Made by a program: the position numbers and the translations under genes
DNA from: a virus
Reading direction: 5' to 3' (one strand)
Virus record (IMG/VR): IMGVR_UViG_3300045988_155525
DNA: 64,000 bases
In this document: in pieces, positions 7,183 to 52,612 of the stretch
Layout: the number at the start of each line of letters is the position of its first letter
Position numbering within the stretch: the first letter of the stretch is position 1
Notes under the pieces: model-generated
The model's input: the letters and a program-made list of their open reading frames with translations, nothing else
Told to the model about the DNA's origin: nothing
Database searches by the model: none

Positions 7183-7857
7183 ATGACAGTAGGTGAATTA
7201 ATTCAAAAATATGGTATAGAATACATCGGTAGATTTTATTCAATATATCGTGGAGTAGTATTGGATAATCAGGATTCTGATAATATTGGTAAATTACTTA
7301 TTATAATACCTTCTATACATGATGGTGTTAAAGTATGGGCAAGACCATATAATAATCCAGGTAGTATAAATTCAGGGGTAAAGTGGTTAATCCCTAGAGT
7401 TGGAGATATAGTTTGGGTACAATTTGAAATGGGTGACCCAATGAGACCAATATGGTCTTATCATAGTTGGGGAATAGGAGAGGTACCAGAAGAATTACAA
7501 AGTAATGATACAGTTGGTTTAGTGACTCCAACTGGTAATAAGATTTATATAAGTGAAGTGGATGGTTCCTTAACCATTATATTAAATCAAAAAGTAACCA
7601 TACAAGTAATTGATGGTAGTTCGATAACTATTGATGGTAGTTCGATAACTATTGATGGTGGAGATAAATTGACCATCAATTCTAGTGATACAATTTTAAA
7701 TGGGGGTAGTAATGGAGGGTTGGTTAATGTGGATTCTCTAAGAAATTTAGTCACCTCCATACAAACTGATTTGGCTACTGTTGGTTCCGGTACTCAGGTA
7801 ACAGCTTGGATGGTAGATGGGATGGTTAATATTGAAGATACTAAAGTAAAACATTAA
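7183..7857 (+). CDS. Baseplate spike, gpV / gp5 OB-fold family
   Basis: YRGVVLDNQDSDNIGKLLIIIPS...PRVGDIVWVQFEMGDPMRPIW fits the gpV/VgrG OB-fold motif, and the C-terminal IDGSSIT repeats are beta-helix-like. ATG 7183 is preferred over the track start 7165, which overlaps the preceding gene. Confidence 0.7.
   Translation: MTVGELIQKYGIEYIGRFYSIYRGVVLDNQDSDNIGKLLIIIPSIHDGVKVWARPYNNPGSINSGVKWLIPRVGDIVWVQFEMGDPMRPIWSYHSWGIGEVPEELQSNDTVGLVTPTGNKIYISEVDGSLTIILNQKVTIQVIDGSSITIDGSSITIDGGDKLTINSSDTILNGGSNGGLVNVDSLRNLVTSIQTDLATVGSGTQVTAWMVDGMVNIEDTKVKH
7609..7650 (+). repeat. Perfect 21-bp tandem duplication (IDGSSIT x2, partial third copy) inside spike gene
   Basis: ATTGATGGTAGTTCGATAACT occurs at 7609-7629 and again at 7630-7650, followed by ATTGATGGTGGA. 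Confidence 0.95.
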
Positions 7858-7868
7858 AAAATATAGCC

Positions 7869-8342
7869 ATGAACTTAAAACAACTCAACTCAATTGGTTC
7901 TGGTGCATATTTTCCCATAGAATTAACTACTATAATGGGGGAAGATGGTAAACCAGAGAAAGTAACATTACCAGATGGTACTCAAGTAAATAAAGTCTCA
8001 TGGAGAGTAATATCTGGGGATGTAAGGTTAATAAATCAGAATATAAAAGCCATCTTAACCTTTCAACTAGGTCAAAGATTTAGACAAGAAAACTTTGGTT
8101 CTAGAACTTGGGAATGTATAGAAGAACCCAACACCCAAGCTTTATCGTTCCTAGTAAGGGATTTTATAAAGGATGGTATATCAGCTTGGGAACCAAGAGT
8201 AAAGGCTATAGATGTACAAACAACCAGAGATAACGAAAAGATACATATATATTTAAGATATATGGTAAACAACTCTCAATCAGTGGAAGAACTTAATTTT
8301 GAATATAACCCTTTAAATAACACTACTACTTATGGCAACTAA
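7869..8342 (+). CDS. Baseplate wedge protein, GPW/gp25 family
   Basis: 157 aa. FQLGQRFRQENFGSRTWECIEEPNTQALSFLVRDFIKDGISAWEPRV fits the gp25-like pattern. It is positioned between V and J. Confidence 0.7.
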   Translation: MNLKQLNSIGSGAYFPIELTTIMGEDGKPEKVTLPDGTQVNKVSWRVISGDVRLINQNIKAILTFQLGQRFRQENFGSRTWECIEEPNTQALSFLVRDFIKDGISAWEPRVKAIDVQTTRDNEKIHIYLRYMVNNSQSVEELNFEYNPLNNTTTYGN

Positions 8343-18566: not shown

Positions 18567-18965
18567 ATGCCTCGTAAAAAACAAGAATTACCTGATTTAA
18601 GTAAAACTAATATACTTAAACCAATTACATTAGATATGATAGGTTCTAATGGTGACCCATGTTTTGGTAAGAATTATGATTTATCTACCGAAGAATGTAA
18701 AATATGTGGAGATTCAGAATTATGTTGTATTAAGTTTTCTAATTCTCTTGGTAAAACTAGAAAGGAGTTAGAGAAAGAGAATATCTATAAAGATTTAGAT
18801 ATCTTAATAGATAAAACTGCAGCTAAAAAAATGTTTAGAACTTTAAAACGTAAAGGTGAGGATAAAAAATCTATAATAGATAAATTACAAAAGAAATTTG
18901 AGTTAACCAGACAAGAAACTAGGCTTTTATATAAAGAATTTTCAAATAAAAGTACCACTAAATAA
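18567..18965 (+). CDS. Hypothetical Cys-rich/basic protein
   Basis: 132 aa with DPCFG...CKICGDSELCC as a possible zinc-binding cluster and a basic helical C-half. Confidence 0.6.
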   Translation: MPRKKQELPDLSKTNILKPITLDMIGSNGDPCFGKNYDLSTEECKICGDSELCCIKFSNSLGKTRKELEKENIYKDLDILIDKTAAKKMFRTLKRKGEDKKSIIDKLQKKFELTRQETRLLYKEFSNKSTTK

Positions 18966-18975
18966 TATATCCATT

Positions 18976-19497
18976 ATGTCAAATTTATTATTTACAAAAG
19001 TAAGGAATGTTAAGGCTCCAGAAAGAGCCCATATAGAGGATGCTGGTATAGATTTTTTTGTACCAGAATTTGATTATAACTTTCTTAAGGATTTTGAAAA
19101 TAAGAACAGATTAACTACTAAATCGGGTATTATAAATTCTACTGAGATTTTGGTAGCTCCCCATGATAGAGTATTGATACCTAGTGGTATAAGGGTAATA
19201 CTACATCCAGGTTCGGCTTTAGTTGCCTTAAATAAATCTGGGGTAGCCACTAAAAAGGGTTTGTTGGTAACTGCACAGTTAATAGACCCACAATATACTG
19301 GGGAAGTACATATAGGGGTATATAACTCAGGTGATGATAGTCAGATTATAAATTGTGGAGAAAAATTAGTACAGTTTATCCATATACCAATTTTTAGTTC
19401 AATACCCGAAGAGTTAGGTTTTGAAATATATGAACAATATATTTCAAAAATGGGTTCGGATAGAGGAGATAATGGGTTTGGTTCAACTAATAAATAA
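18976..19497 (+). CDS. dut: Trimeric dUTP diphosphatase
   Basis: AGIDFFVP, SGIRV, LIDPQYTGEVHIGVYN and the C-terminal RGDNGFGSTNK match dUTPase motifs 1-5. Confidence 0.85.
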   Translation: MSNLLFTKVRNVKAPERAHIEDAGIDFFVPEFDYNFLKDFENKNRLTTKSGIINSTEILVAPHDRVLIPSGIRVILHPGSALVALNKSGVATKKGLLVTAQLIDPQYTGEVHIGVYNSGDDSQIINCGEKLVQFIHIPIFSSIPEELGFEIYEQYISKMGSDRGDNGFGSTNK

Positions 19498-19507
19498 AGT
19501 ATAACAT

Positions 19508-20446
19508 ATGGATTCTAGAGATATAAAAGAGGAACCTAAACCAATTGCTGATTCCAAATATTTAGAAACTTTATATGGTTTACAAAAAGAACTTTTGGAT
19601 AATTATATAAAGATTGAGGGGTTACCCATGTATCCATTGGATATAAATACCAAAAAGTCTCAAATAATATTAAAGGATTTTGTGGGTAGGGTAATTGAGG
19701 AATTAGCTGAAGGTTATGAATCCCTATTAGCCGTAGATGAGTTAACTCAAAAAAATGAGTTATGGGTAAATGAGATAAATGAAGTAGATTATATACAGAC
19801 TTTAAATCATTTACAGAATGCAGGTGAAGAGATTGCTGATTCTCTTCATTTTATGTTAGAGTTACTGATATACTCTAATATCCAACCTAAGGACATAGAT
19901 GATTTCATAGAAAAATACATTAAATATCAACACCACCCTATTACTACTAATGGTAGTGAAGTAAAAGAGTATTGGTATCAACTTTCAGAACAAAATATCT
20001 TAAGGAAGGCTATAGTAGTTGGTACCAATATGATGTATGATAAGTTACCCATAGACTTAGAAAGTAACTTAAAGAAAACAGTAGATTTGGTACAAGATAT
20101 AATTGATGATTATGAGGATTCCTATGAATTTATACATAAGCATGTATTAGATATAAGGTATCTAAGTTGCGGTAGATATTATAGTCATGAGTTATATTAC
20201 TCCTATAAGTATATGTTATGGGAAGTAACATATTGGTTGAATATAGCTAGGAACTTCTTAAAAAATAAGCCATGGAAACAATCTCAAATGATGACTAATG
20301 AATCTGGATATCAAGAAGCTATAATTATGGCCTTCTTAAGTATGATGGGATTATTCTTTAATTTAGGCTTAGTAGATTCTGATATATATTTCTTGTATTG
20401 GAAGAAAAATAAGGTAAATCAGTTCAGGATAAAATCTAATTATTAA
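19508..20446 (+). CDS. All-alpha NTP pyrophosphohydrolase-like protein (MazG / dimeric dUTPase-dCTPase superfamily), putative
   Basis: 312 aa. VIEELAEGYE and NAGEEIADSLHFMLELLIYS resemble the metal-binding EExxE / ExxD helices of this superfamily. The C-terminal KKNKVNQFRIKSNY resembles dimeric dUTPase C-termini. Confidence 0.4.
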   Translation: MDSRDIKEEPKPIADSKYLETLYGLQKELLDNYIKIEGLPMYPLDINTKKSQIILKDFVGRVIEELAEGYESLLAVDELTQKNELWVNEINEVDYIQTLNHLQNAGEEIADSLHFMLELLIYSNIQPKDIDDFIEKYIKYQHHPITTNGSEVKEYWYQLSEQNILRKAIVVGTNMMYDKLPIDLESNLKKTVDLVQDIIDDYEDSYEFIHKHVLDIRYLSCGRYYSHELYYSYKYMLWEVTYWLNIARNFLKNKPWKQSQMMTNESGYQEAIIMAFLSMMGLFFNLGLVDSDIYFLYWKKNKVNQFRIKSNY

Positions 20447-20452
20447 TAGGTG

Positions 20453-21418
20453 ATGGAGCAGTATTTAAATTTATTAGATAAGGTAACTAACCATGGTTAT
20501 TATAAACCTTCTGCCAGGAAAGGTATGCCAGGTACTTATGAAGTATTTGGTGAAATGTTAAGGTTTGATTTAACTGAAAATTTCCCCATATTAACAACTA
20601 AAAAAGTATACTTTAAAGGAGTAGTAGCTGAGTTACTTTGGTTTTTAAAGGGTAAAACTAATATCCATTACCTTTTAAAAAATAATGTACACATATGGGA
20701 TGATGATGCCTATAAATATTATCTAAGGTTATGTAAATACCGAGGTATAGAAGAAGAATATTCTAAAGAAAGGTTTATTAAGATGATAGAATCCTGTGAT
20801 ATTTGTATAACAGGATTAACAGGATTAGAAACTAATATACCATTAATTGATGGTTCTTTTTACCATTATGGGGATTTAGGTTTTTCATATGGGCATCAAT
20901 GGACTTATTGGGAACATAGCTTAAATCAGTTAGAACAGTTAATAGATGGTCTTATCGAAAGACCTAATTCTAGGTATCATGTAGTAACAGCTTGGAACCC
21001 TAATCAAATATTTCCCCTAGAAGTAGCAGTACCCCCATGTCATATACTATTCCAATGTAATGTACGTAATAATAAGTATTTGGACTTAATAGTAACTCAA
21101 CGTTCCTGTGATATATTTTTAGGGCTTCCATTTAATATATCCTCTTATGCTTTATTAAACCATCTTATTTGTAGGCTTACTGGATATGAGCCAGGGGAAT
21201 TAATATGGGTGGGTAACTCCATACATTTATATGAGAATCATATAGAGGCTGCAAAAGAGCAACTAAAAAGGAAACCACTTAATAATACGGCTATAGTTAA
21301 ACTTAAAGAAGAAACCTGTAAATACAAAAATTTATGGGATTTTGAAGTAAGTGATATCATACTAGAAGGATACCAATCCTTAGAATCAATTAAAGCTCCT
21401 TTATCGGTGGGTATTTAA
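20453..21418 (+). CDS. thyA: Thymidylate synthase ThyA (with a ~45-aa insert after the WDDDA segment)
   Basis: Co-linear with E. coli ThyA: [45 protein letters not shown], the catalytic PPCH, [21 protein letters not shown] and NSIHLYENH. The Asn equivalent to E. coli N177 is retained. Confidence 0.85.
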   Translation: [321 protein letters not shown]

Positions 21419-21424
21419 TAAGGT

Positions 21425-22186
21425 ATGAGAAAGAAGATTTTTAATGATTCCTTAGAAGCCTGGGAGAAAATAAATGAGGCTTTTATAAAAGGAGAAAAAG
21501 GTTGGGATATTATTATAAAAAATAAGGCTCTGTATTTATATGATTTAGTAATTGAGGTAGCTAATCCAAGGCTACCTCAAAATTTTGATTTTGGAAGACA
21601 TTTTAACTATACCATATCCAAATGGAATAATCTAATAGGTAATTATATTAATAAACCAGATTTACAAAAAGTAAAATCCTGGGTATCTAAAGAAGAAGAG
21701 AAAAATAATAAGGTATATAATATACCATTATCATTTGATAATAAACATGGTCATGGTAAGAGTTGTTTATTATCTATGGTATTTTCTAGAAGAATGGGTG
21801 ATGTATTACCTTCAGTAGTGGTATTTTTGAGAGCTTCTGAAATTACTAAAAGATTGATATGTGACTTATTATTATTTCAAAGGGTAGGTGAATATATTTA
21901 TGGAGAAGATGATTTTAAATTAGTTATCCATTTCAACCAGGTATTTAATGATGATACTGTATTATTAATGTATGATGTACATCGTGATATCAAGAGTATA
22001 TTGGGTTCAGTAACTAACAGTGATAGAAAAAGGTATCTATTAGAAAGGTTAGAATATTTAAAGAGTTGTAATCCAGATGATATTAAGTATAAGGTACATA
22101 AAAGAGCTCTTAAAGTATTGAGACCAGATTTATTTAAATACCCAAAGACACTAGTTAGAGATTGTAAGTTACATATTACAGAATAG
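21425..22186 (+). CDS. Hypothetical protein, possibly a highly divergent ThyA-fold paralog
   Basis: 253 aa. GKSCLLSMVF...VVVFLRASEITKRLICDLLLF keeps the ThyA spacing Cys-x22-R-[AS]-S-[DE]-x7-D. Weak, by-eye alignment only. Confidence 0.3.
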   Translation: MRKKIFNDSLEAWEKINEAFIKGEKGWDIIIKNKALYLYDLVIEVANPRLPQNFDFGRHFNYTISKWNNLIGNYINKPDLQKVKSWVSKEEEKNNKVYNIPLSFDNKHGHGKSCLLSMVFSRRMGDVLPSVVVFLRASEITKRLICDLLLFQRVGEYIYGEDDFKLVIHFNQVFNDDTVLLMYDVHRDIKSILGSVTNSDRKRYLLERLEYLKSCNPDDIKYKVHKRALKVLRPDLFKYPKTLVRDCKLHITE

Positions 22187-22234
22187 ATAAATATACTAAC
22201 TTTTTTTTATTAAAACCATTAAACATTTAAAAAC

Positions 22235-23023
22235 ATGAGGATTTATTCAAATGGGTATGAGTTAATATCCGAAACTGGTCGTAATTTATGGGAAATGGGT
22301 TCCGAAGTAAAGCCAAAAACTTATCAAAATAAAGTTATAGCTGGTAATGATGATTTTATTACTAAAGAACTTATTTGTGAACAATATTGTTTAACAAAAT
22401 TGGAAGATGAAGATATCTTATTTGTATTTACAAATTGTAAAGATTGGGCTATAGCTGAATTTAAAGAAAGGATTGATTCCAGGAGAATTAACCCTGGTGA
22501 GGCTTATAAATTGAGGTGGGAAATTTGGAATGATTTTTTGACCAATATAGATACTCATGAAATAGGTAGTGATGTATATAGTGTACCTAAATTTGATTAT
22601 ACATATTCCGAAAGGATTAATACAGAAGTAGATTACAAGGGATTAAAGTATCCTAAATTAGAAGCTATAATTAGGTTGTTAGAAGAAGACCCAGATACTA
22701 GGAAAGCAGTATTGAATATATTTGGAACTATAGATTCTAACTATTATGATGGTTATCATAGGATACCATGTTCTATGTATTATGATTTTCTAATCAGAGA
22801 GAACCCAAGAGGAGAAAAGCAATTGAACTTATGTTATCATCAAAGGAGTTCTGATTTTATAACTCATTTTGGAAATGATGTATGGTTAGCTTGGCAATTA
22901 AAGGATTATGTTGCAAATAGGTTAGGAATTAAGCCTGGGTACTTATACCATACTATTGATTCTTTACATGTGTACAAAAAGGATTGGGTGAAATTAAAAA
23001 CTTCCCTCAATAGTATGGTATAA
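22235..23023 (+). CDS. ThyA-family pyrimidine nucleotide C5-transferase paralog (dCMP hydroxymethylase/methylase-like)
   Basis: DPDTRKAVLNIF (cf. DSRRIIVSAWN), RIPCSMYYDF (catalytic Cys), HQRSSDFITHFGNDVWLAWQL (cf. [20 protein letters not shown]) and DSLHVYKKD (cf. DTHLYSNH). Asp replaces the uracil-reading Asn. Confidence 0.55.
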   Translation: MRIYSNGYELISETGRNLWEMGSEVKPKTYQNKVIAGNDDFITKELICEQYCLTKLEDEDILFVFTNCKDWAIAEFKERIDSRRINPGEAYKLRWEIWNDFLTNIDTHEIGSDVYSVPKFDYTYSERINTEVDYKGLKYPKLEAIIRLLEEDPDTRKAVLNIFGTIDSNYYDGYHRIPCSMYYDFLIRENPRGEKQLNLCYHQRSSDFITHFGNDVWLAWQLKDYVANRLGIKPGYLYHTIDSLHVYKKDWVKLKTSLNSMV

Positions 23024-23103: not shown

Positions 23104-23178
23104 TGAGCTATAGTATAATGGTTAGTACAGGGGATTTTGATTCCTCTAGTCCTGGTTCAACTCCAGGTAGCTCAACCA
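23104..23178 (+). tRNA. tRNA-Gln (anticodon UUG), CCA encoded
   Basis: Manual cloverleaf. The acceptor TGAGCTA/TAGCTCA has 7 perfect bp. The D stem is GTAT/GTAC. The anticodon stem GGGGA/TCCTC closes the loop TT-TTG-AT. The T arm is CCTGG-TTCAACT-CCAGG, with discriminator A followed by CCA. Confidence 0.85.
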
Positions 23179-23183
23179 AAAAT

Positions 23184-23269
23184 GCTCGGATGGTGGAATA
23201 GGTAGACACGTGGGACTTAAAATCCCATGGACAGCGATGTTCGTACGGGTTCGATTCCCGTTCCGAGTA
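23184..23269 (+). tRNA. tRNA-Leu (anticodon UAA), type II with long variable arm
   Basis: The acceptor is GCTCGGA/TCCGAGT with a G1-U72 pair. The anticodon stem TGGGA/TCCCA closes the loop CT-TAA-AA. There is a long variable arm, and the T arm is ACGGG-TTCGATT-CCCGT. Confidence 0.85.
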
Positions 23270-23292
23270 CTACAATTTAAATAATTATTATA

Positions 23293-25560
23293 ATGGTAAC
23301 CAGATATCATATAATAAGAACCTTTAGTGAATTAAAACAATTAATAGAAGCATGCTCAAAAACTGGGTATGCTTCTGTTGACTTTGAAACTAATGCTAAA
23401 GGTATCTATACAGATGAATTTAAACCAACCATATTATCAGTATCCTTTCAAGTTGGTTCAGGTGTAAGTATCCCATTACAACATTTTGATGAATCAGTTT
23501 CTTTTTTACAAAAAAATGATTTATGGTTATCATGGTTACAATATTTCGGTAGGAAAGTAATAGAAAATCCAAACATAGTAAAGGTAGGTTGGAATTGGAA
23601 ATTTGATAATCAGATATTTGTAAAGTATGGTATATATGCTAGGGGTACTGTAATTGACGGTATGTTAGCAAAATATCTCTTAAATGAAGAAAGACCTAAT
23701 GGTCTGAAAGATATGGTTAGGAGATATTTGCCAGAATTTGGTGATTATGAAAAGTATGATAAATTCGATAATATACCATGGGATAAAAAACCATTAGAAC
23801 CATTATGTAGATACGGTTGCATGGATGTAGATTTTACCCTACGTTTATCTATATTTTTGGAGGCTAAATTAATAGAGAAAGGTTTTTATAGTTTATATAG
23901 GCATCTAATAATGCCTGCAAGTAAAGTATTGCAATCAGCTGAATGTCATGGTTTACCTCTAGATAAAGAGTTGAATGAATCTTTGCAGGTAAAATATAAT
24001 AACTTAATAGAAACCTTTACTAATAAGCTTTATTCAATTCCACAAGTAATAAAATATGAAAAATATACTAAAAAGGAGAGAAAAGATAAGTATATTAATA
24101 AACTAAGGGAAGAAATTGAAGAATTAAGTAGTCAAACTGGGAAAGAGAGGCAAATAAAAACCAGAGAACAAAAAATATCCCGGGTTTTGGTTGGGGAATA
24201 TGTTACTAAAGAAGAAAAAGCCTTAGATAATCCAGTAAACTTTAAATCAACCAAACAGATGATTGATTTATTGTTTATATCTCCCAAAGGGTTCAAATTT
24301 CCAATATTAGCTTATACCAAAGATGAGAAGACCAAAAGGGATACTTCCAACCCTAGTACTTCAGAGGATGTTTTGGTCAAGCTAAAGGCTTATGATAAAT
24401 CTAGTTTTATAGATACTTTATTGGAATTGAGGGGTGTATCAACTATAAATTCCACTTTTATAGTAGGATTAGGTAACCTTATTCAAAGTGATGGTTGTGT
24501 ACACCCAACATTTCTAATACATGGTACAACTTCTGGAAGGTTATCATCTAGGGAACCCAATGGTCAAAATATACCCAAGACTATGGTTAACCCCGATGTA
24601 AAACTTCAATTTATAACTCCCCCAAATAAGTTATTTTTAACTTATGACTACTCTCAAGCAGAATTACGAATATTAGCCCATTTGGCTAAAGAAGATACCA
24701 TGCTAGAGTGGTTTAGAACTGGTAAGGATATTCACTTAGCATCCGCTTGTAAAAAATATCATGAAGATTACGATAAGATAATAAAAATCTATGAAGATGA
24801 ACAACATCCAGAACATAAACTTTGGAAAAAAAGAAGGAAACAAGCTAAAACCATAAACTTCGGTATAGTATATGAACAGTCTGCTCCTAAATTAGCAGAA
24901 TCTCTTTCAACTCCAGAAGAAGTAGTATCAGCAGAAGAAGGTCAAGAATTTCTGGATGATTATTTTTGTACTTTTCCAAAGATTAAGAAATTCATGGAAA
25001 AGCAACATAAATTTATGGAGAAAAATGGATATTGTGTATCTTTATTTGGTAGGAGGAGAAGATGTCCACAAGTGTACTCTGAAAAGTATGGGGAATATTT
25101 AGAGGCTTTGAGACAGAGCACAAACATGCCATGCCAATCTGCAGCATCAGATATGGCTTTATTTGCATCTGTTATAGTTTATGAAAAGGTAAAAAAAGGA
25201 GAATTACCCCCAATGGATGAAGTAGATACTGTACATGACTCAGTATATCAATTCATTGAACCCAAGTATTTAACTCCAGATACTATATATGGTATATGGG
25301 ATATTTGTCGTAATCCATCTACTAAAAAGTATTTTGGATTTAGTATAGATGATGTTGATATGTCCATGGATTTTACTGTGGGTAGGAATATGGCGGAAGA
25401 GTTACCCTATATACCAGGTTATGATTATTCAAAACTTTTAAGAGAAGATTTTGATATAAATGAATATTATGAGGAACATAAAAAGACCCGGGATATAGCC
25501 ATTAAAGAGTATCCTAATATATTTAAAGAAGACTTTTCTATGTCATGGAGAAAAAGATAA
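23293..25560 (+). CDS. DNA polymerase, family A, with 3'-5' exonuclease domain
   Basis: Exo motifs SVDFETN, NWKFDNQ and YGCMDVDF. Polymerase motif A DYSQAELRILAHLA, motif B RRKQAKTINFGIVYEQS and motif C VHDSVY. Confidence 0.9.
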   Translation: MVTRYHIIRTFSELKQLIEACSKTGYASVDFETNAKGIYTDEFKPTILSVSFQVGSGVSIPLQHFDESVSFLQKNDLWLSWLQYFGRKVIENPNIVKVGWNWKFDNQIFVKYGIYARGTVIDGMLAKYLLNEERPNGLKDMVRRYLPEFGDYEKYDKFDNIPWDKKPLEPLCRYGCMDVDFTLRLSIFLEAKLIEKGFYSLYRHLIMPASKVLQSAECHGLPLDKELNESLQVKYNNLIETFTNKLYSIPQVIKYEKYTKKERKDKYINKLREEIEELSSQTGKERQIKTREQKISRVLVGEYVTKEEKALDNPVNFKSTKQMIDLLFISPKGFKFPILAYTKDEKTKRDTSNPSTSEDVLVKLKAYDKSSFIDTLLELRGVSTINSTFIVGLGNLIQSDGCVHPTFLIHGTTSGRLSSREPNGQNIPKTMVNPDVKLQFITPPNKLFLTYDYSQAELRILAHLAKEDTMLEWFRTGKDIHLASACKKYHEDYDKIIKIYEDEQHPEHKLWKKRRKQAKTINFGIVYEQSAPKLAESLSTPEEVVSAEEGQEFLDDYFCTFPKIKKFMEKQHKFMEKNGYCVSLFGRRRRCPQVYSEKYGEYLEALRQSTNMPCQSAASDMALFASVIVYEKVKKGELPPMDEVDTVHDSVYQFIEPKYLTPDTIYGIWDICRNPSTKKYFGFSIDDVDMSMDFTVGRNMAEELPYIPGYDYSKLLREDFDINEYYEEHKKTRDIAIKEYPNIFKEDFSMSWRKR

Positions 25561-25993: not shown

Positions 25994-26377
25994 ATGATTA
26001 AAGGTATAAACATCCCATTACCCACTAAAGACATTGCTATAAAATTAAATCTTTCAGTATTGGGTGAACCCACTGAAAATAGGGTATTGATAATCCATCC
26101 AAATGATAATGAATATACCACAAAAAGTGGATTATACGTATCGAACCCAGATTCTAATGAGTTGCCTAAAAAAGGTGTAATAATAAAATTGGGACCTATT
26201 ACTGAGGGGTATAAGACTTATATTAACCAATTGATGGTAGGTAGTATAGTTACTTATGGTATGTATGCTGGTAAAGAAATTGAACCTAATTTTACTGATT
26301 CAGAATTAAATTTAGGTAATGATTATAAATATACTGTTCTTTCATTAAATGAGCTTATTTACATTGAAAATCAATAA
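25994..26377 (+). CDS. GroES-like co-chaperonin (Cpn10 / T4 gp31 analogue), putative
   Basis: NRVLIIHPNDNEYTTKSGLYV...PKKGVIIKLGP...MVGSIVTYGMYAGKEIE...YTVLSLNELIYI follows the Cpn10 pattern: RVLV..E.kT.gGi...G.V.a.G...vGD.V.f..y.g.e...y.il...di. Confidence 0.5.
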   Translation: MIKGINIPLPTKDIAIKLNLSVLGEPTENRVLIIHPNDNEYTTKSGLYVSNPDSNELPKKGVIIKLGPITEGYKTYINQLMVGSIVTYGMYAGKEIEPNFTDSELNLGNDYKYTVLSLNELIYIENQ

Positions 26378-28740: not shown

Positions 28741-29644
28741 TAAGTTATTATTATTGATAGATGGTTCTAATCTAGCATATAGGGCTTTTCAAAAATTTGA
28801 ATTGTTGAAGGCTAGGGATGGTAGAAAAACCGGGTTAATATATGGATTTATGAGATTACTTAATTCATATATTACTAGGTTCAGACCTACTTATGTTATA
28901 GTGACTTTTGATACCAAGAAAAGTAAATCATCAAATTTTAGAAACGGTTTACTTGGAGGTTATAAAATACACCGAAAAAATAACCTGTCTATGGATTATG
29001 AAGAATTCAATAGACAGGTTAGGTCGGTTAAAAAAATGTTAAAATACCTTAATATCCCTGTAGTATGGGATTCAAAGGGGTTAGGTCATGAGTCCGATGA
29101 TTATATAGGTTACTATGCTTTAAAACACAAAGGTAAAGTAATTATAATATCTTCAGATAAAGACTTTTGTCAGTTAATCAGTAAGAATATAAAGATATAT
29201 AACCCTTTCAAGGAAACCATAATTCAGGAAAAGACTTGTATGGATGTAATGGGGTATAACCCCAATGAGTGTGTGGATTACCTATGTTTAATTGGTGATA
29301 AATCTGATGATATACCTGGATATATAGGGATGGGTCCAGTAAAAACTAGGTCATTTTTAAATGAATTTGGTTCCATAGAAAATTTCCTTAGTGATGATAC
29401 TAAAGAATTTAAGGGAATAGATAGAGAAGGACTAAAAGACCTTTATGAAAGGAATAAGACTCTTATAGATATAAGAATAGCTTTAGAAAAATACCCATTG
29501 AAAAATATACCTATAATATATTCAAAGGTAAACAAAATTCAGAGAGGTAAATTAAGAGAAGAATTTAAGAAATACACTTTAAGTTCTTTTATGACAGACA
29601 GCTTTTTAAAACCCTTTTTAAAATTAAGACCATGGAGAAAATAA
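28730..29644 (+). CDS. 5'-3' exonuclease / flap endonuclease (T4 RNase H-like, PIN + H3TH)
   Basis: LLLIDGSNLAYRAF, VTFDTKKS, ISSDKDFCQL, GDKSDDIPG and GMGPVKT. Confidence 0.85.
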   Translation: MSTDKLLLLIDGSNLAYRAFQKFELLKARDGRKTGLIYGFMRLLNSYITRFRPTYVIVTFDTKKSKSSNFRNGLLGGYKIHRKNNLSMDYEEFNRQVRSVKKMLKYLNIPVVWDSKGLGHESDDYIGYYALKHKGKVIIISSDKDFCQLISKNIKIYNPFKETIIQEKTCMDVMGYNPNECVDYLCLIGDKSDDIPGYIGMGPVKTRSFLNEFGSIENFLSDDTKEFKGIDREGLKDLYERNKTLIDIRIALEKYPLKNIPIIYSKVNKIQRGKLREEFKKYTLSSFMTDSFLKPFLKLRPWRK

Positions 29645-30288
29645 AAGTAACCTTAACTGGACCTAGTGGAGTAGGTAAAACCACTTTAGCAAAAGAAATA
29701 TCTAATATGTTTACCATACCTTTTATATCTGGTTCTTATTCTGATTTAGTACCAGAAACTAGAAATGAAAGGCATGAGGATATGATTAATAAAGAACCTA
29801 AAATTATCTTTGAGCAAGATATGCAGGTTCTTTGTAAAAGGAGGAATGCTTTTAATGTTACGGATACATTCGTATCTGATAGGAGTTATATCGATTCTGC
29901 AGCCTACATTATAAATAAATTATCTCATAGATACCCAGAGTGTGAAATAGATAGTTTTTGTAATTTATGTAAAGCATTAACTAAACAAACCACTCATATT
30001 ATATTTATCCCATTTTCCAAAAACTTTATGAACCATTGGGAGATGGAGGATAATAATAAAAGGGTATTGAATAGGTATTATCAATTTGAGGTATCTCAAG
30101 TTATATTTGGGTTACTTGATTTATGGGGATACCGTAATAAATGGTCATATTGTACCAATACTGTATCAGATGCTGGGATAATAACTATAGAAGATAAGGA
30201 AATACCTATATTAATTCTTGATGAATTAGACTTCAATAATAGAGTTTCTATTGTTAGAAGGTTCTTAAAATCTACAGAAAATTTATGA
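29632..30288 (+). CDS. P-loop deoxynucleoside/deoxynucleotide kinase-like protein
   Basis: P-loop LTGPSGVGKTTLA and a dNK-like (E/D)RS motif SDRSYIDSAAY. Confidence 0.5.
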   Translation: MEKIKVTLTGPSGVGKTTLAKEISNMFTIPFISGSYSDLVPETRNERHEDMINKEPKIIFEQDMQVLCKRRNAFNVTDTFVSDRSYIDSAAYIINKLSHRYPECEIDSFCNLCKALTKQTTHIIFIPFSKNFMNHWEMEDNNKRVLNRYYQFEVSQVIFGLLDLWGYRNKWSYCTNTVSDAGIITIEDKEIPILILDELDFNNRVSIVRRFLKSTENL

Positions 30289-47484: not shown

Positions 47485-47778
47485 ACCATAACTAAGTTAG
47501 AATCAGAACAGAAGATAAAGGAACTCTATAGGGAAATAAAGAACCTTAAAAATCAAAAAGAATCCATAAACCAAATTATCCAGAATGAAATCCAAAATAC
47601 CTTCTACACCCAATGGTTAAAACTAAACCGACAACTCCTAGAAAAGTATTTATCACAAAACCTAAGGATAGAAATAAATACTGGATATCAGGGATACTTT
47701 GAAATCAACCCATACCTGGGTGAAAATATCCTAACTTGGGCTGATGGTTATATTGACCAAGAACCCAATCTCTTATAA
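47485..47778 (+). pseudogene. 97-codon stop-free frame with no ATG/GTG/TTG (start-disabled gene or non-canonical ATA start)
   Basis: The frame is open from the TAA at 47482-47484 to the TAA at 47776-47778. The translation is protein-like (TITKLESEQKIKELYREIKNLKNQKES...GYQGYFEINPYLGENILTWADGYIDQEPNLL). An ATA at 47488 sits where a start would be expected. Confidence 0.35.
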
Positions 47779-47823
47779 TCTTAAAGAACCACCAAACATA
47801 AAAAAACCAAATAAAAAATAATA

Positions 47824-47853
47824 AAGGTACCTAATATACTAAATAGGTACCTT
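47824..47853. promoter_or_regulatory. GGTACC-core hairpin b (terminator-like when read on the minus strand)
   Basis: AAGGTACCTA (47824-47833) pairs with TAGGTACCTT (47844-47853) around a 10-nt loop. An A/T-rich tract on the left becomes a U-rich tail for minus-strand transcripts. Confidence 0.55.
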
Positions 47854-48059
47854 AAATTTGTGATAATAAATATAAAGTATATAAATATAGGATTAATATA
47901 AAGAGGGGATAAAGGATAGGATATTATATAATAAGGATAAAAGGTAAAAAATCAGTTTTTTATATTTCATTCATTTTTAAGACCTTGATACCTAAAAATT
48001 AGGGGTTGCAATTTTGATAAATTCTTGTTTTTTACAAGGTTTTTATATTGTTTTTATAT

Positions 48060-48235
48060 TGAAGTTAGATGTCAGAGCCTCCGGAAAAACACCGGGGAGG
48101 TTTCGGATTAATAGGGGGGTAACTATGTTCGTACACTATAGCCACATAGCTAGAAAGCTCATCTGTTGACTTTTTAAGGCCCTCCATCCGACAGCCTTTT
48201 TGGCCATCCTGGCTCAATAAAATCTTCTAGGATTA
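48060..48235. ncRNA. GC-rich island, candidate structured RNA or protein-binding locus (strand unresolved)
   Basis: A patch of locally much higher G+C inside ORF-free AT-rich DNA. It shows hairpin CCTCCGG/CCGGGGAGG, long-range TCGGAT/ATCCGA plus GGGGGG/CCCTCC, and CTATG/CATAG. No ORF longer than 17 codons. Confidence 0.3.
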
Positions 48236-48466
48236 TACTTATCAAATTTTAAAAAGTATCAACAAACCATATATAACATATATCTAACTTATACTTTTCT
48301 CATTTCCTAGAGATTACTAAGTTATCGCCCCTCTTAATTATACTAAAACTTAAAAATAATCTCTAGAAGGCATATTTAAATAACCCAATTTTTAGGCCTA
48401 TTTTAATCAAAAAACCTAAAAATAAACCTAAAGAAAAAAGATAGGAAAAAATCCTCGGTACCTAAA

Positions 48467-49312
48467 CCTTACTTTATATTTATTATATATATATATAAGT
48501 AATATATTGAAAAAATTTAGGTATTCAAATATACTCATTTGTTGGGTGGTTTTTCAAAATAGGAGTATTTTTCTTATAGTATATATTATATATAATATAA
48601 ATGAAATTTTTGAAGGTATGGTTTTATTAGTAGTTTTGAGTATGTTTTACATTTTGGGTATTTTTGTTTTAGTATATATTATATAAGAATTGGGAGAATT
48701 TTTGAAACTTGAGTGACTTTAAGTATATTTTTAAGAGTTGGCTTTTTATAGATTTTAGTATTCCCTATATATTATATATAATAGGGTAGGTTGGCTTTTG
48801 GGGTTGGTATATTAGGTACCTTTATTATTTTAGGTTTCATGTTCCTTGGTTATTTTTTGTTTTTAGTAAATACCTAAGCCTTAGTACATTAGTACTCTAT
48901 ATCAATTATTATAAAGGCCTAAAGTCCTAAAGACCGATTAGGCTTAATATCTCCAAGGCCTATTAGGATATTCCTACCTTACCTTTACTTTATATTTATT
49001 ATATATATATAATAAGGACTAAAAAAATTCTAAACTCTAAAAACCCAGCTACAATTGGAGTTTTCAAAAATGGCCTTATATAGGCCTATATAGAATATAT
49101 TATATATAGGTATATAATTTATCTTACCTTTAATTCTACTCTCTTATATAAATACCCATATATTAATCTTTATATACCTTTATACCCATATCCTTATATT
49201 ATTATATTTAGTGAATATCCCATACTTCAAGGATTATCAAAAAAAACCTGGCTACAATATGAGTTGGTTTTTTGAGCCTTATGTAGGCCGATATGGAATA
49301 TATTATAAAGGG
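48467..49312. repeat. Degenerate ~92-bp periodic repeat array with AT-palindrome cores
   Basis: TATATATTATATA-like cores lie near 48490, 48585, 48678, 48772, 49008, 49100 and 49300. Units 48511-48600 and 48601-48690 share GTATTTTT(C/G)TT(A/T)TAGTATATATTATATA. A ~31-nt repeat CCTT(T)ACTTTATATTTATTATATATATATA occurs at 48467-48497 and 48982-49012. A ~70-nt repeat occurs at ~49045-49112 and ~49245-49312. Confidence 0.75.
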
Positions 49313-49410
49313 GTATGTAATAAAAACTCTATAAATTTAATTTATCCGAACCTTTATGGTTTATAAAAAAATGCAATATCGAAAATCTCAAAAAAATTTG
49401 CAGGGGAGCA

Positions 49411-49443
49411 ATATTATTTATATATTTGCATAAACAAAAGGGA
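49411..49443 (+). promoter_or_regulatory. Conserved phage promoter copy, variant A
   Basis: ATATTATTTATATATTTGCATAAACAAAAGGG with the -7 box at 49421-49428. The shared leader runs to ATGGAAA at 49472. Confidence 0.65.
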
Positions 49444-49471
49444 ATTTAATTAATCACTAAAAATTATCACT

Positions 49472-49690
49472 ATGGAAAACAAAAACATTTTTAAAAAACT
49501 TTTTGATTACATATATATGGGAAAGGACAATATTTTTAAAAAAATATGTCGCTATATATATTGGATTGGTCTTTGTATAAAACATTACACAAAGAAATTC
49601 TTTATTTATTGGATACCAAATATTTTTCATTTAAAAAGGGCATGGAAAAATAATTGGATATTTGATGCCGAAAATGATTTTATTCGGTAA
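49472..49690 (+). CDS. Hypothetical small protein
   Basis: 72-aa ORF bracketed by a promoter copy and a terminator. Confidence 0.6.
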   Translation: MENKNIFKKLFDYIYMGKDNIFKKICRYIYWIGLCIKHYTKKFFIYWIPNIFHLKRAWKNNWIFDAENDFIR

Positions 49691-49700
49691 AAAAACTATG

Positions 49701-49731
49701 GGGGAGATTCAAAAAAATCTCCCCATTTATT
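49701..49731 (+). terminator. Hairpin terminator
   Basis: GGGGAGATT (49701-49709) pairs with AATCTCCCC (49716-49724), followed by ATTTATTT. Confidence 0.6.
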
Positions 49732-49744
49732 TGCAAATAACTCA

Positions 49745-49775
49745 AATCTCCCTTATATTTGCATAACAAACAAAA
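49745..49775 (+). promoter_or_regulatory. Conserved phage promoter copy (divergent)
   Basis: AATCTCCCTTATATTTGCATAACAAACAAAA with the -7 box at 49754-49761. Confidence 0.5.
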
Positions 49776-49852
49776 AGGAAATAGAAAGGGTTAAAGAAAT
49801 CCATAAAAATCTCCTTCCTATATTCCCTCCTAATAAATAATAAAGGATTTTT

Positions 49853-50299
49853 ATGGTATATGCTATGGAAGAAATGGTTAAGGAAATGGTAAAAACCAAT
49901 GAAGAGGTAAAAACCAATGCAAATGCCAAAAAGGCAAGGACAACTACCAAAAAAACCAATGCCAAACCTTCAGTATCGGATATCCTTAAAATAGGGAATA
50001 CCATTTTAACATCCGAAAAGAATTCCAAACAAGGTATATATAAAAGGGAATTATTCTTGGATTGCAAGGATGATAAAGAAAAGAAAAGTTTACGTATCAA
50101 ACTTAGACGTAAATTGAAAAACTTTTTGGGTGCATTCCTTCAAAATGAAAAGAATCCTGAAAAAATATCCGAAATCAAAAAGGAATGGCAAAACTATGCC
50201 AAACAGGTATATAATAATGTAGAAATTATTATGGATGGTAATACAAGCAATGATAATGCAGAACTTTGCAAAAGGTTTTTGAAGGCAATGAGTAAATAG
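49853..50299 (+). CDS. Hypothetical basic protein
   Basis: 148-aa ORF downstream of a promoter copy and followed by a terminator. The exact start (49853 or 49865) is uncertain. Confidence 0.6.
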   Translation: MVYAMEEMVKEMVKTNEEVKTNANAKKARTTTKKTNAKPSVSDILKIGNTILTSEKNSKQGIYKRELFLDCKDDKEKKSLRIKLRRKLKNFLGAFLQNEKNPEKISEIKKEWQNYAKQVYNNVEIIMDGNTSNDNAELCKRFLKAMSK

Positions 50300-50317
50300 G
50301 TAAGTAAAAGTTAAATA

Positions 50318-50364
50318 ATAGGGGATAGGTCTAGGTTTTAGATTTGTCCCCTATTTTTATTTTG
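50318..50364 (+). terminator. Rho-independent terminator
   Basis: ATAGGGGA (50318-50325) pairs with TCCCCTAT (50347-50354), followed by TTTTTATTTT. Confidence 0.65.
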
Positions 50365-50703
50365 AAAGGTTAAATAAAAGGGGATACCGTTCCCCCCTTT
50401 AAATACGTAGCCTTTTTTATCCCTAAGGGAGCCCCCTTTTTTTCCTTATATATCCTTTTTTTATAATTCCTATTAATCCTATCCTTATCTTTTTTAGTTC
50501 CCTTATTAAAAATCCTTCTTCTTATCATTGGGTAGTGATTTTTTTTAATTTATAGGATTAACCTATTGAAGAGTATATTATAATAATCCTTATCCTTTTT
50601 TTATAAGGTAATTTATATTGTACTTTTATTATTGAATAAATACCTCTTTTTATATATTTATTTTATTTGGTTTTTTTTGTGTTTGGGGTGGGTATGGGTA
50701 TAC

Positions 50704-50743
50704 ACAAAAAAATAGGTACCGAATTTCTCAATCAGGTACCTAT
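50704..50743 (-). terminator. GGTACC-core hairpin c, minus-strand rho-independent terminator
   Basis: ATAGGTACC (50712-50720) pairs with GGTACCTAT (50735-50743). On the minus strand a T7 run follows directly (plus-strand A7 at 50705-50711), downstream of the minus-strand gene cassette. Confidence 0.7.
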
Positions 50744-50822
50744 CCAAACTCATAAATTTTAAATCACTAATGCTATGGAACAAAGGATTGTTGTTACATA
50801 TCCAAAGTAAAATAGTTGAATA

Positions 50823-51020
50823 TTATTTTTTTCTATTTACTAAAGCTAGGATGGCAGTTATTATTAATCCCAATATACCTATTGGAGATATTACCCATAT
50901 ACCAAACATAGTCATAGCATATCTGGTTTTATTTAGGGCTGAATCTTTCCTAACTACACTACTTACCCATAGAGTAAATAAAAAACCCAAAGAATATATT
51001 ATTAGTAATGTTAAATACAT
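50823..51020 (-). CDS. Small two-TMD membrane protein (class II holin-like)
   Basis: 65 aa with two hydrophobic helices (LTLLIIYSLGFLFTLWV and GIWVISPIGILGLIITAILAL) and a charged C-end NRKK. It is the last gene of the minus-strand cassette. Confidence 0.45.
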   Translation of the reverse strand: MYLTLLIIYSLGFLFTLWVSSVVRKDSALNKTRYAMTMFGIWVISPIGILGLIITAILALVNRKK

Positions 51021-51199
51021 AATAAAGTTATTATGAAGGTTAATATTAATAATTTTACTAGAAATTTACTAGACTCCTTTTTATATTGCTCTTTATCTTC
51101 TTCTTTTAATAAGTTATGAAGGCAAAATAAATCACCAACACAATTTATTATTTTAGTCCAAAAGGCTGTATTTATTAAAAATCCCAATTTACCCCACAT
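51011..51199 (-). CDS. Small C-terminally anchored membrane protein
   Basis: 62 aa with the C-terminal hydrophobic segment LVKLLILTFIITLLCI. It overlaps the next minus-strand gene by 10 nt. Confidence 0.45.
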   Translation of the reverse strand: MWGKLGFLINTAFWTKIINCVGDLFCLHNLLKEEDKEQYKKESSKFLVKLLILTFIITLLCI

Positions 51200-51200
51200 A

Positions 51201-51601: not shown

Positions 51602-52612
51602 ATGAAGACAAAATTGAGTGTATTAGGAGTATGTGGAGCTCAAGGAGCTTTATTATTCCCCTTTAGGAAACAATTGTTGGCTAATATTGAGCCAAGACCC
51701 ATTTTTCATACTAAAAATGAAGAACAATGGAAGCTTAATTTTAAAGATATTCCATTTTTAAGGAGTTTAGAACAGTATAATGGTCCTAATCCTGACATAA
51801 TTTTGGGTTCTCCCTCCTGTGGACATAGTAGTGTATTCAGTTATTCAAGGAAAAAGAGGTTAGGAAACCCAAAAGAAGATAAAACCCTGAATTTGTTTGT
51901 GGAATCCATCCTAAAATTTAAGCCCAAAGTGTTTTTATTAGAGAATTTACCCAAATTAATGGATGTTATACCTCAAAAAGATTGGGAAAAAACCTTACCT
52001 GGTTATAATATAATTACACATTGCCATTCGGTAATAGATTTTGGTAACTCCCAAAAATCAAGAAAAAGATTAATTTTAATAGGGGCCAGAATTAATTCTA
52101 GAATATCAATAGAGAATTTTTTAAATATATTCCAAGTAACTACTCCACGATTAGTTTCTGAAATTCTAGAAAAGGTTAGAAATGATTATAATTTTAGAGA
52201 AGAACCAAATAAAGTTCTTAGTATGTATCATTATGCTGATAAAAGTAAGACTAACTTATCAGTTGAACAAGTTCAAAATTTATGGAATACAGAATTTAAA
52301 AATGAGTATAGGTGGCCAATGAAAAATCATAAGATGGTAACCTTACCAGGAGTATATAGAAATCAACTTAATAGTTACCCTTTAACCATAAGACCTGCTA
52401 ATAGGCAATTTAATCCAGATGGTTCAATCATAGGTTTAGAGGACACTAGAATTATAATGGGTTTCCCTAAAAAATTTAAAGTGTATTTTGACCCAAATAA
52501 TAGGACCTATTGGTTAAATAAAGGAAGAAATACTTTGGCAAAAGGTTCGGTATATGAGGTAGGGGTTTGGTTTAAAAAATGCCTTAGGATGGCAACCAAA
52601 ACTAGGGCCTAG
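51602..52612 (+). CDS. DNA cytosine-C5 methyltransferase-like protein (divergent motif IV)
   Basis: Motif I-like LGVCGAQG, motif IV-like GSPSCGHSS (canonical GPPCQ), motif VI FLLENLPKL and motif VIII-like NSQKSRKRLILIG. Confidence 0.55.
   Translation: MKTKLSVLGVCGAQGALLFPFRKQLLANIEPRPIFHTKNEEQWKLNFKDIPFLRSLEQYNGPNPDIILGSPSCGHSSVFSYSRKKRLGNPKEDKTLNLFVESILKFKPKVFLLENLPKLMDVIPQKDWEKTLPGYNIITHCHSVIDFGNSQKSRKRLILIGARINSRISIENFLNIFQVTTPRLVSEILEKVRNDYNFREEPNKVLSMYHYADKSKTNLSVEQVQNLWNTEFKNEYRWPMKNHKMVTLPGVYRNQLNSYPLTIRPANRQFNPDGSIIGLEDTRIIMGFPKKFKVYFDPNNRTYWLNKGRNTLAKGSVYEVGVWFKKCLRMATKTRA

Follow-up and report, generated by a model that had tools for sequence, protein, structure and literature searches.

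A conserved pair of ThyA-fold genes upstream of the DNA polymerase gene in a tailed phage, and its possible role in cytosine modification

Homologs of the thymidylate synthase ThyA are, to our knowledge, the entry point of every pre-replicative pyrimidine modification known in phage DNA (5-hydroxymethylcytosine, 5hmC; 5-hydroxymethyluracil, 5hmU; 5-methylcytosine, 5mC; 5-hydroxycytosine, 5hoC), and we know of no new ThyA-homolog clade that has not brought new chemistry with it. Such modifications influence restriction, CRISPR targeting and sequencing. The tailed gut phage of the IMG/VR record IMGVR_UViG_3300045988_155525, of which we analysed a stretch of 64,000 nucleotides (here called the window), carries three ThyA-fold genes in a row within a block of pyrimidine genes. 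This raises the question of what the two genes that follow the ordinary thymidylate synthase gene, referred to here as ORF4 (21425-22186) and ORF5 (22235-23023), are for. We found that ORF4 and ORF5 are a conserved, recurrent and widespread unit and no oddity of this phage, and we tentatively favour, as the most likely function of the block, a T4-like pre-replicative pathway to C5-substituted deoxycytidine.

Two divergent ThyA-fold proteins in a pyrimidine gene block

The five open reading frames (ORFs) of the block run head to tail on the + strand, flanked by a SNF2-type helicase gene (16845) and the gene of a family A DNA polymerase (PolA, 23293). Their limits agree with those of the first-pass annotation, the sole change being that the ThyA ORF opens at GTG 20450, with ATG 20453 as its second codon.

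18976-19497, + strand: trimeric dUTPase (PF00692, TIGR00576, phrog_135, five motifs)
19508-20446, + strand: all-alpha nucleoside triphosphate (NTP) pyrophosphatase of the dUTPase_2/MazG type (PF08761, phrog_12184, phrog_173)
20450-21418, + strand: canonical thymidylate synthase ThyA (PF00303 over the full profile length)
21425-22186, + strand: ORF4, deeply divergent ThyA-fold protein (AlphaFold2 model, Foldseek, hhalign)
22235-23023, + strand: ORF5, ThyA-superfamily enzyme of a distinct clade (PF00303, residue mapping, AlphaFold2 model)
23293-25560, + strand: PolA (match to a PolA query; downstream of the ORF4/ORF5 pair)

ORF5 had been read as a ThyA paralog with Asp in place of Asn177, 11 residues after the conserved Arg, and the profile alignment bore this out. 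The protein matched PF00303 (5e-16, 59.1 bits, cut-off 24.3) and scored far under every NCBIfam thymidylate synthase cut-off (TIGR03283, 51.7 against 174.55 bits; NF002495, 41.5 against 327). Its residues were mapped in three ways, with HMMER against thymidylate synthases of solved structure (an alignment free of gaps), with hhalign against the ThyA of the window and with MAFFT, the last including E. coli ThyA and cross-checked by the HMMER and hhalign alignments. In this register, C179 corresponds to ThyA C146, S180 to H147, R176 to L143, R204-S205 to R166-S167, D207 to D169, D215 to N177, and H245 and Y247 to H207 and Y209; D215 sits on the Asn177 position, 11 residues past R204, in the ungapped HMMER alignment. 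Across 41 relatives C179, R204, S205, D207, D215, H245 and Y247 are invariant. Ser180 at the His147 position is likewise invariant in the family, and the same holds for Arg176 at the Leu143 position, also when the six distant ORF5-like proteins of the alignment are included. ORF5 ends 15 residues beyond Tyr247 (the Tyr209 equivalent), and the C-terminal segment of ~50 residues that closes over the folate is missing. With its AlphaFold2 model (predicted local distance difference test, pLDDT, 92.3), Foldseek gave 396 PDB matches at E <= 0.001, the best 50 of which all belong to the ThyA superfamily. The closest structures were MilA, a cytidine monophosphate (CMP) hydroxymethylase (template modelling score, TM, 0.71; 3.3e-14), and AfhB, the deoxycytidine monophosphate (dCMP) 5-hydroxylase of phage HY126, with thymidylate synthases behind them.

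Published position rules allow the specificity of such a protein to be predicted. Asp at ThyA position 177 goes with dCMP specificity, the residue at position 143 correlates with a methyl versus a hydroxymethyl product and is acidic in hydroxymethylases, and D169N is the mark of flavin-dependent 5-hydroxy-dCMP synthases (PMC13326640). Positions 177 and 147 best tell whether a ThyA homolog comes from a modified-cytosine or an unmodified phage contig, Asp177 together with a non-His residue at position 147 marking contigs with modified cytosine (PMC8670742). By these rules for positions 177, 147 and 169, ORF5 would be cytosine-directed, of the folate type and no hydroxylase; it is probably a folate-dependent dCMP C5-transferase. 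A second thymidylate synthase was ruled out on the grounds of Asp177, Ser at position 147, the sub-cut-off equivalog scores and the absence of the C-terminal lid, and a 5-hydroxy-dCMP synthase on the retained Asp169 equivalent.

Neither the single ORF4 sequence nor a 61-sequence profile of its family gave a match in Pfam, NCBIfam or the PDB, and the one PHROG match of ORF4 is of unknown function. Its AlphaFold2 model (mean pLDDT 93.2, predicted TM-score 0.91) retrieved 12 PDB structures at E <= 0.001 with Foldseek, and all 12 are ThyA-superfamily enzymes: MilA at the top (3.8e-7), AfhB of phage HY126, T4 dCMP hydroxymethylase and thymidylate synthases. Structure matches in BFVD agreed with this result. 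The TM-scores reached only 0.45-0.53, so that the core is common with ThyA and much else is different. The ORF4 family comprised 232 clusters among 1.84 billion cluster representatives, with no bridge to ThyA, and K66, W67, L70, Y74, C114, R136 and D147 are invariant throughout 78 diverse members whose identity goes down to 16%. Compared with the ORF5 family by hhalign, the 78-member ORF4 family gave E = 5.8e-4 and a probability of 29%; an earlier comparison with the close ORF4 family had been insignificant (probability 0.3%) and was improved by the more diverse alignment. The hidden Markov model (HMM) of the ORF4 family also weakly matched the ORF5-like proteins of Gordonia and Mycobacterium phages.

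In the hhalign register via the ORF5 family, C114 and R136 of ORF4 align with C179 and R204 of ORF5, and C114, R136, E139, D147 and Y183 take the places of ThyA C146, R166, D169, N177 and Y209. A third, very divergent copy had previously been suggested by eye in this same register. A chance resemblance to ThyA is refuted by the structure and the invariant residues, and judged by the predicted structure together with the invariant-residue pattern ORF4 is a ThyA-fold protein. K142, R143 and C146 occupy, by alignment register, positions that in ThyA belong to the folate pocket. ORF4 has no recognisable folate-pocket residues, and its cofactor may therefore differ from folate. A search among longer members of the family found no informative domain fusions, and two GenBank records already label an ORF4-like gene 'pyrimidine hmase synthase'. 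Perhaps ORF4 is a cytosine-nucleotide enzyme or a second subunit, in partnership with ORF5.

The gene pair in related loci and in cultured phages

We compared 81 related loci, 80 from IMG/VR and one from a Logan contig. ORF4-like and ORF5-like genes were found, in that order, in 80 of them, and the sole exception ends at a contig edge. The order of genes was dUTPase, pyrophosphatase, an extra protein of 329-360 residues where present, an optional ThyA or ThyX, ORF4, ORF5 and PolA, and PolA was matched downstream of the pair in all the related loci. The extra protein, detected between pyrophosphatase and ORF4 in 76 of the 81 loci (for example at 7349-8335 of locus L001), is a further ORF4 paralog that retains the Cys, Arg and Asp core, and its gene usually overlaps ORF4 by 8 nt. 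The window does not have it and carries ThyA in that slot, which is variable among relatives (ThyA, ThyX or, most often, the extra paralog). Most close relatives are without any canonical thymidylate synthase. As the pair is constant while the synthase is ThyA, ThyX or absent, the function of the pair should be other than the synthesis of thymidine monophosphate (dTMP). Some relatives also have ThyX (PF02511) together with a DUF3310 gene. The gap between ORF5 and PolA is filled in relatives by small inserted ORFs of varying length, e.g. HNH or DUF3310, and in the window it holds tRNA-Gln(TTG) and tRNA-Leu(TAA) (23104-23270, + strand).

The adjacent pair was also identified in cultured phages of Clostridium, Serratia, Yersinia, Pseudomonas, Brevundimonas, Streptomyces, Gordonia, Microbacterium and Mycobacterium. 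Eight distant cassettes were taken for comparison, those of Clostridium perfringens phage P21, Serratia phage Opt-155, Yersinia phage P744, Brevundimonas phage Strzyga, Streptomyces phage KimJongPhill, Gordonia phage Margaret, Microbacterium phage Triscuit and mycobacteriophage Muddy, which span phages of Firmicutes, Proteobacteria and Actinobacteria. In 8/8 cassettes the ORF4-family HMM matched the gene that immediately precedes the ORF5-like one (E 7e-52 to 2.5e-6), and PolA follows the pair in all eight. The usual order in cultured phages was a P-loop kinase (annotated as thymidylate or polynucleotide kinase), a pyrophosphatase of the dUTPase_2 type, the ORF4-family gene, the ORF5-like gene, usually a gene of the dCMP-deaminase family, and PolA. 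The pyrophosphatases are homologous from cassette to cassette, and the distant ORF5-like proteins all show N177D, L143R and H147S/T, keep D169 and have the short C-terminus. The two genes of the pair overlap by 1-4 nt in several cultured phages and are probably often translationally coupled. In Muddy the ORF4-like protein is gp47 and the ORF5-like protein gp46, the whole module covering gp49-gp44. Further cultured carriers are Serratia phage Serbin and Pseudomonas phage PMBT14, which like Muddy have a deaminase, and the C. perfringens phages CPAS-15 and CPD4, which together with P21 stand nearest to the window and, as in the window, have none. A scan of genome contigs yielded only metagenome-binned phage-like contigs, in Clostridium, Dysosmobacter and Romboutsia bins.

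Two of the cassettes show additional features. In Triscuit, another annotated thymidylate synthase gene lies right behind the ORF5-like gene (locus L089, 4280-5077), so that a run of three ThyA-related genes is also seen beyond the lineage of gut phages. In the C. perfringens carriers, PolA is fused to an N-terminal domain of the uracil-DNA-glycosylase superfamily (P21, locus L082, 8333-10771; PF03167, 1.9e-10).

It had been supposed that several C5-transferases in one small phage are unusual, and that these are two or three distinct enzymes. The first view is wrong in one respect, as the pair is a recurrent, widely spread cassette, and the second looks doubtful, as ORF4 and ORF5 behave as one conserved unit. 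Literature searches returned nothing on paired or heterodimeric ThyA homologs and no experimental work on the pair; what is new here is the ORF4-like and ORF5-like genes as a conserved gene pair.

A possible route to C5-substituted deoxycytidine and its alternatives

The three genes upstream of the pair were each assigned as the first-pass annotation had proposed. The dUTPase at 18976-19497 matched PF00692 (44.8 bits, cut-off 22; 1.4e-11), TIGR00576 (6.7e-19) and the dUTPase group phrog_135 (7.4e-26), and holds all five trimeric motifs (DAGIDF, NKSG, LIDPQYTGE, KLVQF and RGDNGFGST). It is kept at the same position in 79 of the 81 related loci and can be taken, on its motifs, as a bona fide trimeric dUTPase that would convert dUTP to deoxyuridine monophosphate (dUMP) and pyrophosphate. 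The ThyA at 20450-21418 matched PF00303 at 6.5e-86 (288 bits, profile positions 1-266, full length). It shows PPCH, QRSCD and GLPFN, a C-terminal tail ending in KAPLSVGI, the ~50-residue insert of L. casei-type enzymes (long form), and the equivalents of R21, E58, W80, Y94, C146, H147, R166, S167, D169, N177, H207 and Y209. It is thus predicted to be a canonical thymidylate synthase, turning dUMP into dTMP.

The pyrophosphatase at 19508-20446 matched PF08761 dUTPase_2 (29.6 bits, cut-off 22.9; 1e-6) and two PHROG groups annotated as nucleotide pyrophosphohydrolase, phrog_12184 and phrog_173, with zero sequence matches in the PDB. It carries the paired acidic metal motifs EELAE (residue 64) and EEIAD (residue 107) and has homologs in Clostridium phage P21 (9.5e-21), Serratia phage Opt-155 (3.3e-13) and Muddy (gp48, 2.5e-9), where the pyrophosphatase gene directly precedes the ThyA-like pair. 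From sequence, it is a member of the all-alpha NTP pyrophosphohydrolase superfamily (dimeric dUTPase/MazG/HisE), and it may act as a dCTPase, or a dCTPase/dUTPase, supplying dCMP.

Two genes further away bear on the function of the block.

29632-30288, + strand: P-loop kinase-like protein (PF13521, phrog_2107, cassette-kinase HMM)
51602-52612, + strand: C5 DNA methyltransferase-like protein (PF00145, 2.5e-12)

We propose that the region is a pyrimidine module acting on the nucleotide pool and built in two layers. The first would be an ordinary thymidylate supply, in which the trimeric dUTPase delivers dUMP and the canonical ThyA turns it into dTMP. The second would be a conserved mobile cassette, made up of the all-alpha pyrophosphatase and the cytosine-type ORF4 and ORF5, immediately upstream of PolA. 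Here the pyrophosphatase would hydrolyse dCTP to dCMP, clearing the canonical triphosphate from the pool. In ORF5, Cys179 would attack C6 of dCMP while Asp215 reads the cytosine face, and a one-carbon unit would pass from methylene-tetrahydrofolate to C5. A hydroxymethyl-type group is perhaps likelier than methyl as the product, because there is no C-terminal lid, a polar Arg replaces the water-excluding Leu143 and the folate-type Asp169 is kept. ORF4, with its Cys, Arg and Asp core, would work with ORF5, either as subunit of a heterodimer or by acting on the same nucleotide in a consecutive step. ThyA enzymes work only as dimers with shared active sites, to which the partner subunit lends arginines, and for a conserved, often coupled pair of paralogs a heterodimer or two consecutive steps is the simplest reading. 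Finally, a P-loop kinase, for which the protein at 29632 is the only candidate, would phosphorylate the product and the phage PolA would incorporate it. Neither a dCMP deaminase nor a dihydrofolate reductase (DHFR) was found when the window was searched, and C5-substituted dCMP would therefore have no route to a thymine nucleotide here, unlike in the scheme of the Xp12 type.

The T4 logic of gp56, gp42 and gp1, to which the block had earlier been compared, fits in gene content and in the rule of Asp177 with non-His147, and is weak for the kinase, which shows no significant similarity to gp1. As in T4 (gp56, gp42 and gp1, plus td), there is an all-alpha NTP pyrophosphatase, an Asp-bearing ThyA-fold enzyme with short C-terminus, a P-loop kinase-like protein and a separate ThyA, and in both systems the parts lie in the replication gene block. 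ORF5 and T4 gp42 have in common the Asp at the 177/179 position (D215) and the catalytic Cys (C179). They show no significant sequence similarity: the PDB entries 1b5d and 6a9a of the T4 enzyme are not among the best 60 of the 80 PDB sequence matches of ORF5 (E > 0.15), nor is gp42 among the best 50 of its 396 structural matches. Unlike gp42, ORF5 has Arg and no acidic residue at the Leu143 position. The window also differs from T4 in that ORF4, a much more divergent ThyA-fold protein, is an obligatory neighbour, that no glycosyltransferase was found, and that the kinase shows no significant sequence similarity to gp1.

The 5mC system of phage Xp12 (dCMP methylase, 5mC-selective deaminase, pyrophosphatase and PolA) likewise places an Asp177 ThyA homolog beside an NTP pyrophosphatase and PolA, and the distant carriers of the pair have a dCMP-deaminase-family gene at the same place. 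Unlike ORF5, the Xp12 enzyme is a full-length ThyA with Arg21 and Glu58 equivalents, a C-terminal tail and Asn at position 143, encoded beside genes for a HAD hydrolase, a deaminase and DHFR. No ORF4-family member occurs in Xp12, and the two ThyA clades did not overlap in tblastn searches. An Xp12-type methylase was ruled out for ORF5 on its other architecture and clade and on the lack of an ORF4 partner in Xp12.

The flavin-dependent 5-hydroxy-dCMP synthases (RB69 gp48, DLP3 gp80 and HY126 AfhB; PDB 9iqu, 9iqc) resemble ORF5 in the short ThyA fold and Asp177. AfhB is among its best matches (sequence 6.3e-8, TM 0.66-0.78) and matches the ORF4 model too. These enzymes differ in D169N, where ORF5 has the invariant Asp207 and ORF4 Glu139, and in Glu at position 143, where ORF5 has Arg; no arabinosyl or other glycosyl transferase genes were found here. 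MilA, the CMP 5-hydroxymethylase of mildiomycin biosynthesis (PDB 5b6d, 5jnh), is a cytosine-specific ThyA homolog and has Asp177 in common with the pair. It differs in belonging to bacterial secondary metabolism and acting on a ribonucleotide, in its length of 318 residues, in Asp at position 143 and in having no second ThyA-fold partner. ORF4 and ORF5 appear to belong to none of the characterised clades.

Several observations weigh against the proposed pathway, in particular against full substitution of cytosine. The protein encoded at 51602-52612, for which TIGR00675 stayed under cut-off, has a non-standard catalytic motif (GSPSCG for PPCQ) and also ENL and QKSRKR, and it is conserved (48-72% identity) in 58 phage contigs of IMG/VR, 40-150 kb in length, with the ORF4/ORF5 pair also present on at least two of them. 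Such a gene speaks against full replacement because the enzyme would be without substrate if every cytosine were C5-substituted. The 64-kb window also contains no GATC site, compared with 156 +/- 12 in dinucleotide-preserving shuffles and ~183 expected from a Markov model (z = -13.5), which suggests that the DNA is still exposed to sequence-specific attack and under continuing selection by a GATC-recognising agent. GATC was zero in 17 of the 80 related 16-kb loci, with an overall observed/expected ratio of 0.30 and some loci normal; it is also avoided in the cassette loci of Serratia phage Opt-155 and Yersinia phage P744, and not in Muddy, P21 or Xp12. GATC avoidance occurs also in phages of Dam-positive hosts. 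Since relatives differ in this avoidance while all having the pair, we consider it host-driven and weakly informative, and for both reasons it was dropped as decisive evidence against modification.

Other points of this kind concern the enzymes themselves. The N-terminal ~125 residues of ORF5 could not be aligned with ThyA, and its equivalents of Glu58, Trp80 and Tyr94 are uncertain. Arg at the Leu143 position is unusual, apparently unprecedented, and differs both from the acidic residue found there in known hydroxymethylases and from the hydrophobic one of methylases, which makes the call on the product of ORF5 a weak one. The gene at 29632 had been taken for a dNK-like P-loop kinase; the P-loop and weak matches of the nucleoside monophosphate kinase type are there (PF13521 AAA_28, 1.1e-9; phrog_2107 'thymidylate kinase', 1e-8 over residues 1-165), and PF01712 dNK stayed under its cut-off (0.0054). 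It was the only window ORF matched by the cassette-kinase HMM (E = 3.9e-5), phmmer against the individual cassette kinases found nothing, and there was no kinase among its significant PDB matches. Homology to T4 gp1 was dropped, as no significant sequence similarity was detected, and the gene is the only candidate for a deoxynucleoside monophosphate kinase in the window, with a weak assignment. No glycosyltransferase was found among the ~60 window ORFs scanned, in line with what had been noted before, the window shows 64 kb of a genome of ~72 kb, and literature searches gave no report of DNA modification for cassette-bearing phages, including the window phage.

A more specific form of the T4-like pathway, which we regard as possible and rather doubtful, is a heteromeric ThyA-fold enzyme of ORF4-like and ORF5-like subunits, with the third paralog added in most gut relatives, that has two different active sites and makes a C5-substituted deoxycytidine other than 5mC, 5hmC or 5hoC. 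In one possible route, neither water nor hydride but another nucleophile would capture the exocyclic-methylene intermediate. Were ORF4 and ORF5 instead independent enzymes making two different C5-modified pyrimidines, the virion DNA would contain more than one non-canonical base. Each of them does keep a complete Cys, Arg and Asp core, their folate-site positions differ (K142/R143 in ORF4 against T210/H211 in ORF5), and a third paralog that has this core is present in close relatives. Such independence is unlikely, as neither gene was seen without the other in 80 related loci and 8 distant cassettes, where at least occasional single occurrence would be expected, and the two are often coupled, and with Asp at the base-reading position in both they would compete for the same substrate.

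Perhaps the pair serves a thymidylate bypass, as proposed for Xp12-like phages, in which dCMP is turned into 5-methyl-dCMP and this is deaminated to a thymine nucleotide, leaving the DNA canonical or nearly so. A dCMP-deaminase-family gene lies behind the pair in most cultured carriers (Muddy and the Gordonia, Streptomyces, Serratia and Yersinia phages), and deaminases linked to Asp177 ThyA homologs convert 5-methyl-dC to dT nucleotides (bioRxiv 10.1101/2024.12.05.627091). The lack of a canonical thymidylate synthase in most close relatives, the C5 methyltransferase-like gene and the GATC avoidance, which fit ordinary cytosine in the DNA, point the same way. We nevertheless find a bypass quite unlikely: no deaminase was detected in the sequence seen of the window phage and its 80 relatives, the window phage has its own ThyA, ORF5 is without the C-terminal lid and other features of the Xp12 methylase, and the same logic in Xp12-type phages still gives DNA fully substituted with 5mC. 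That the pair acts outside DNA synthesis, on ribonucleotides as MilA does on CMP, by sequestering or sensing nucleotides, or by interfering with the dimeric ThyA of the host, seems very improbable. It would agree with MilA being the best structural match of both proteins and with an ORF4 that has no recognisable folate-pocket residues and no sequence-profile match. The pair is, on the other hand, always found among replication genes, immediately upstream of PolA and beside a deoxynucleoside triphosphate pyrophosphatase and a kinase, and ORF5 keeps the equivalents of His207 and Tyr209, which in ThyA contact the deoxyribose 3'-OH. A role that is structural and nothing more is hard to reconcile with a catalytic Cys and a phosphate-binding Arg that are so strictly kept.

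Surrounding genes and what the pair may mean

The window belongs to a tailed phage of low GC content (~30%) whose replication block is large and which also has genes for baseplate, tail and capsid. Directly upstream of the dUTPase gene, both here (18567-18965, + strand) and in 80 of the 81 related loci, lies the gene of a Cys-rich protein of 132 residues (CFGKNYDLSTEECKICGDSELCC) with no Pfam match. Within the replication block, a GroES-like co-chaperonin gene (25994-26377, + strand; PF00166 Cpn10, 6.3e-7) is placed between PolA and a gp32-like single-stranded DNA-binding protein, and the related locus L001 has one too. An ORF of 831 residues at 53504-55999 (+ strand), which adjoins the structural genes upstream, carries an inserted intein splicing domain, an HNH_3 endonuclease and a NUMOD4 motif. 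A region of ~3.7 kb (~47500-51200) is nearly without ORFs of more than 100 codons on both strands and has a GC content of 27-28% and a flat GC skew, in contrast to the remaining window.

Pre-replicative modification by ThyA homologs is already known, and there is a real chance that the T4-like pathway favoured here involves new chemistry or a new heteromeric architecture. What stands out is a ThyA-fold family that escapes sequence searches of Pfam, NCBIfam and the PDB, yet has the core for covalent catalysis, and whose genes are paired one to one with those of a distinct Asp177 ThyA clade across the phages of three bacterial groups. If ORF4 and ORF5 form a two-subunit or two-step enzyme, this would be a new architecture for the enzyme class and could explain metagenomic ThyA homologs that are inactive when expressed alone. 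If a heteromeric enzyme of this kind makes a new base, hundreds of phages would have that base in their DNA, among them the therapeutic mycobacteriophage Muddy, and it would have a practical bearing on the engineering and sequencing of therapy phages.

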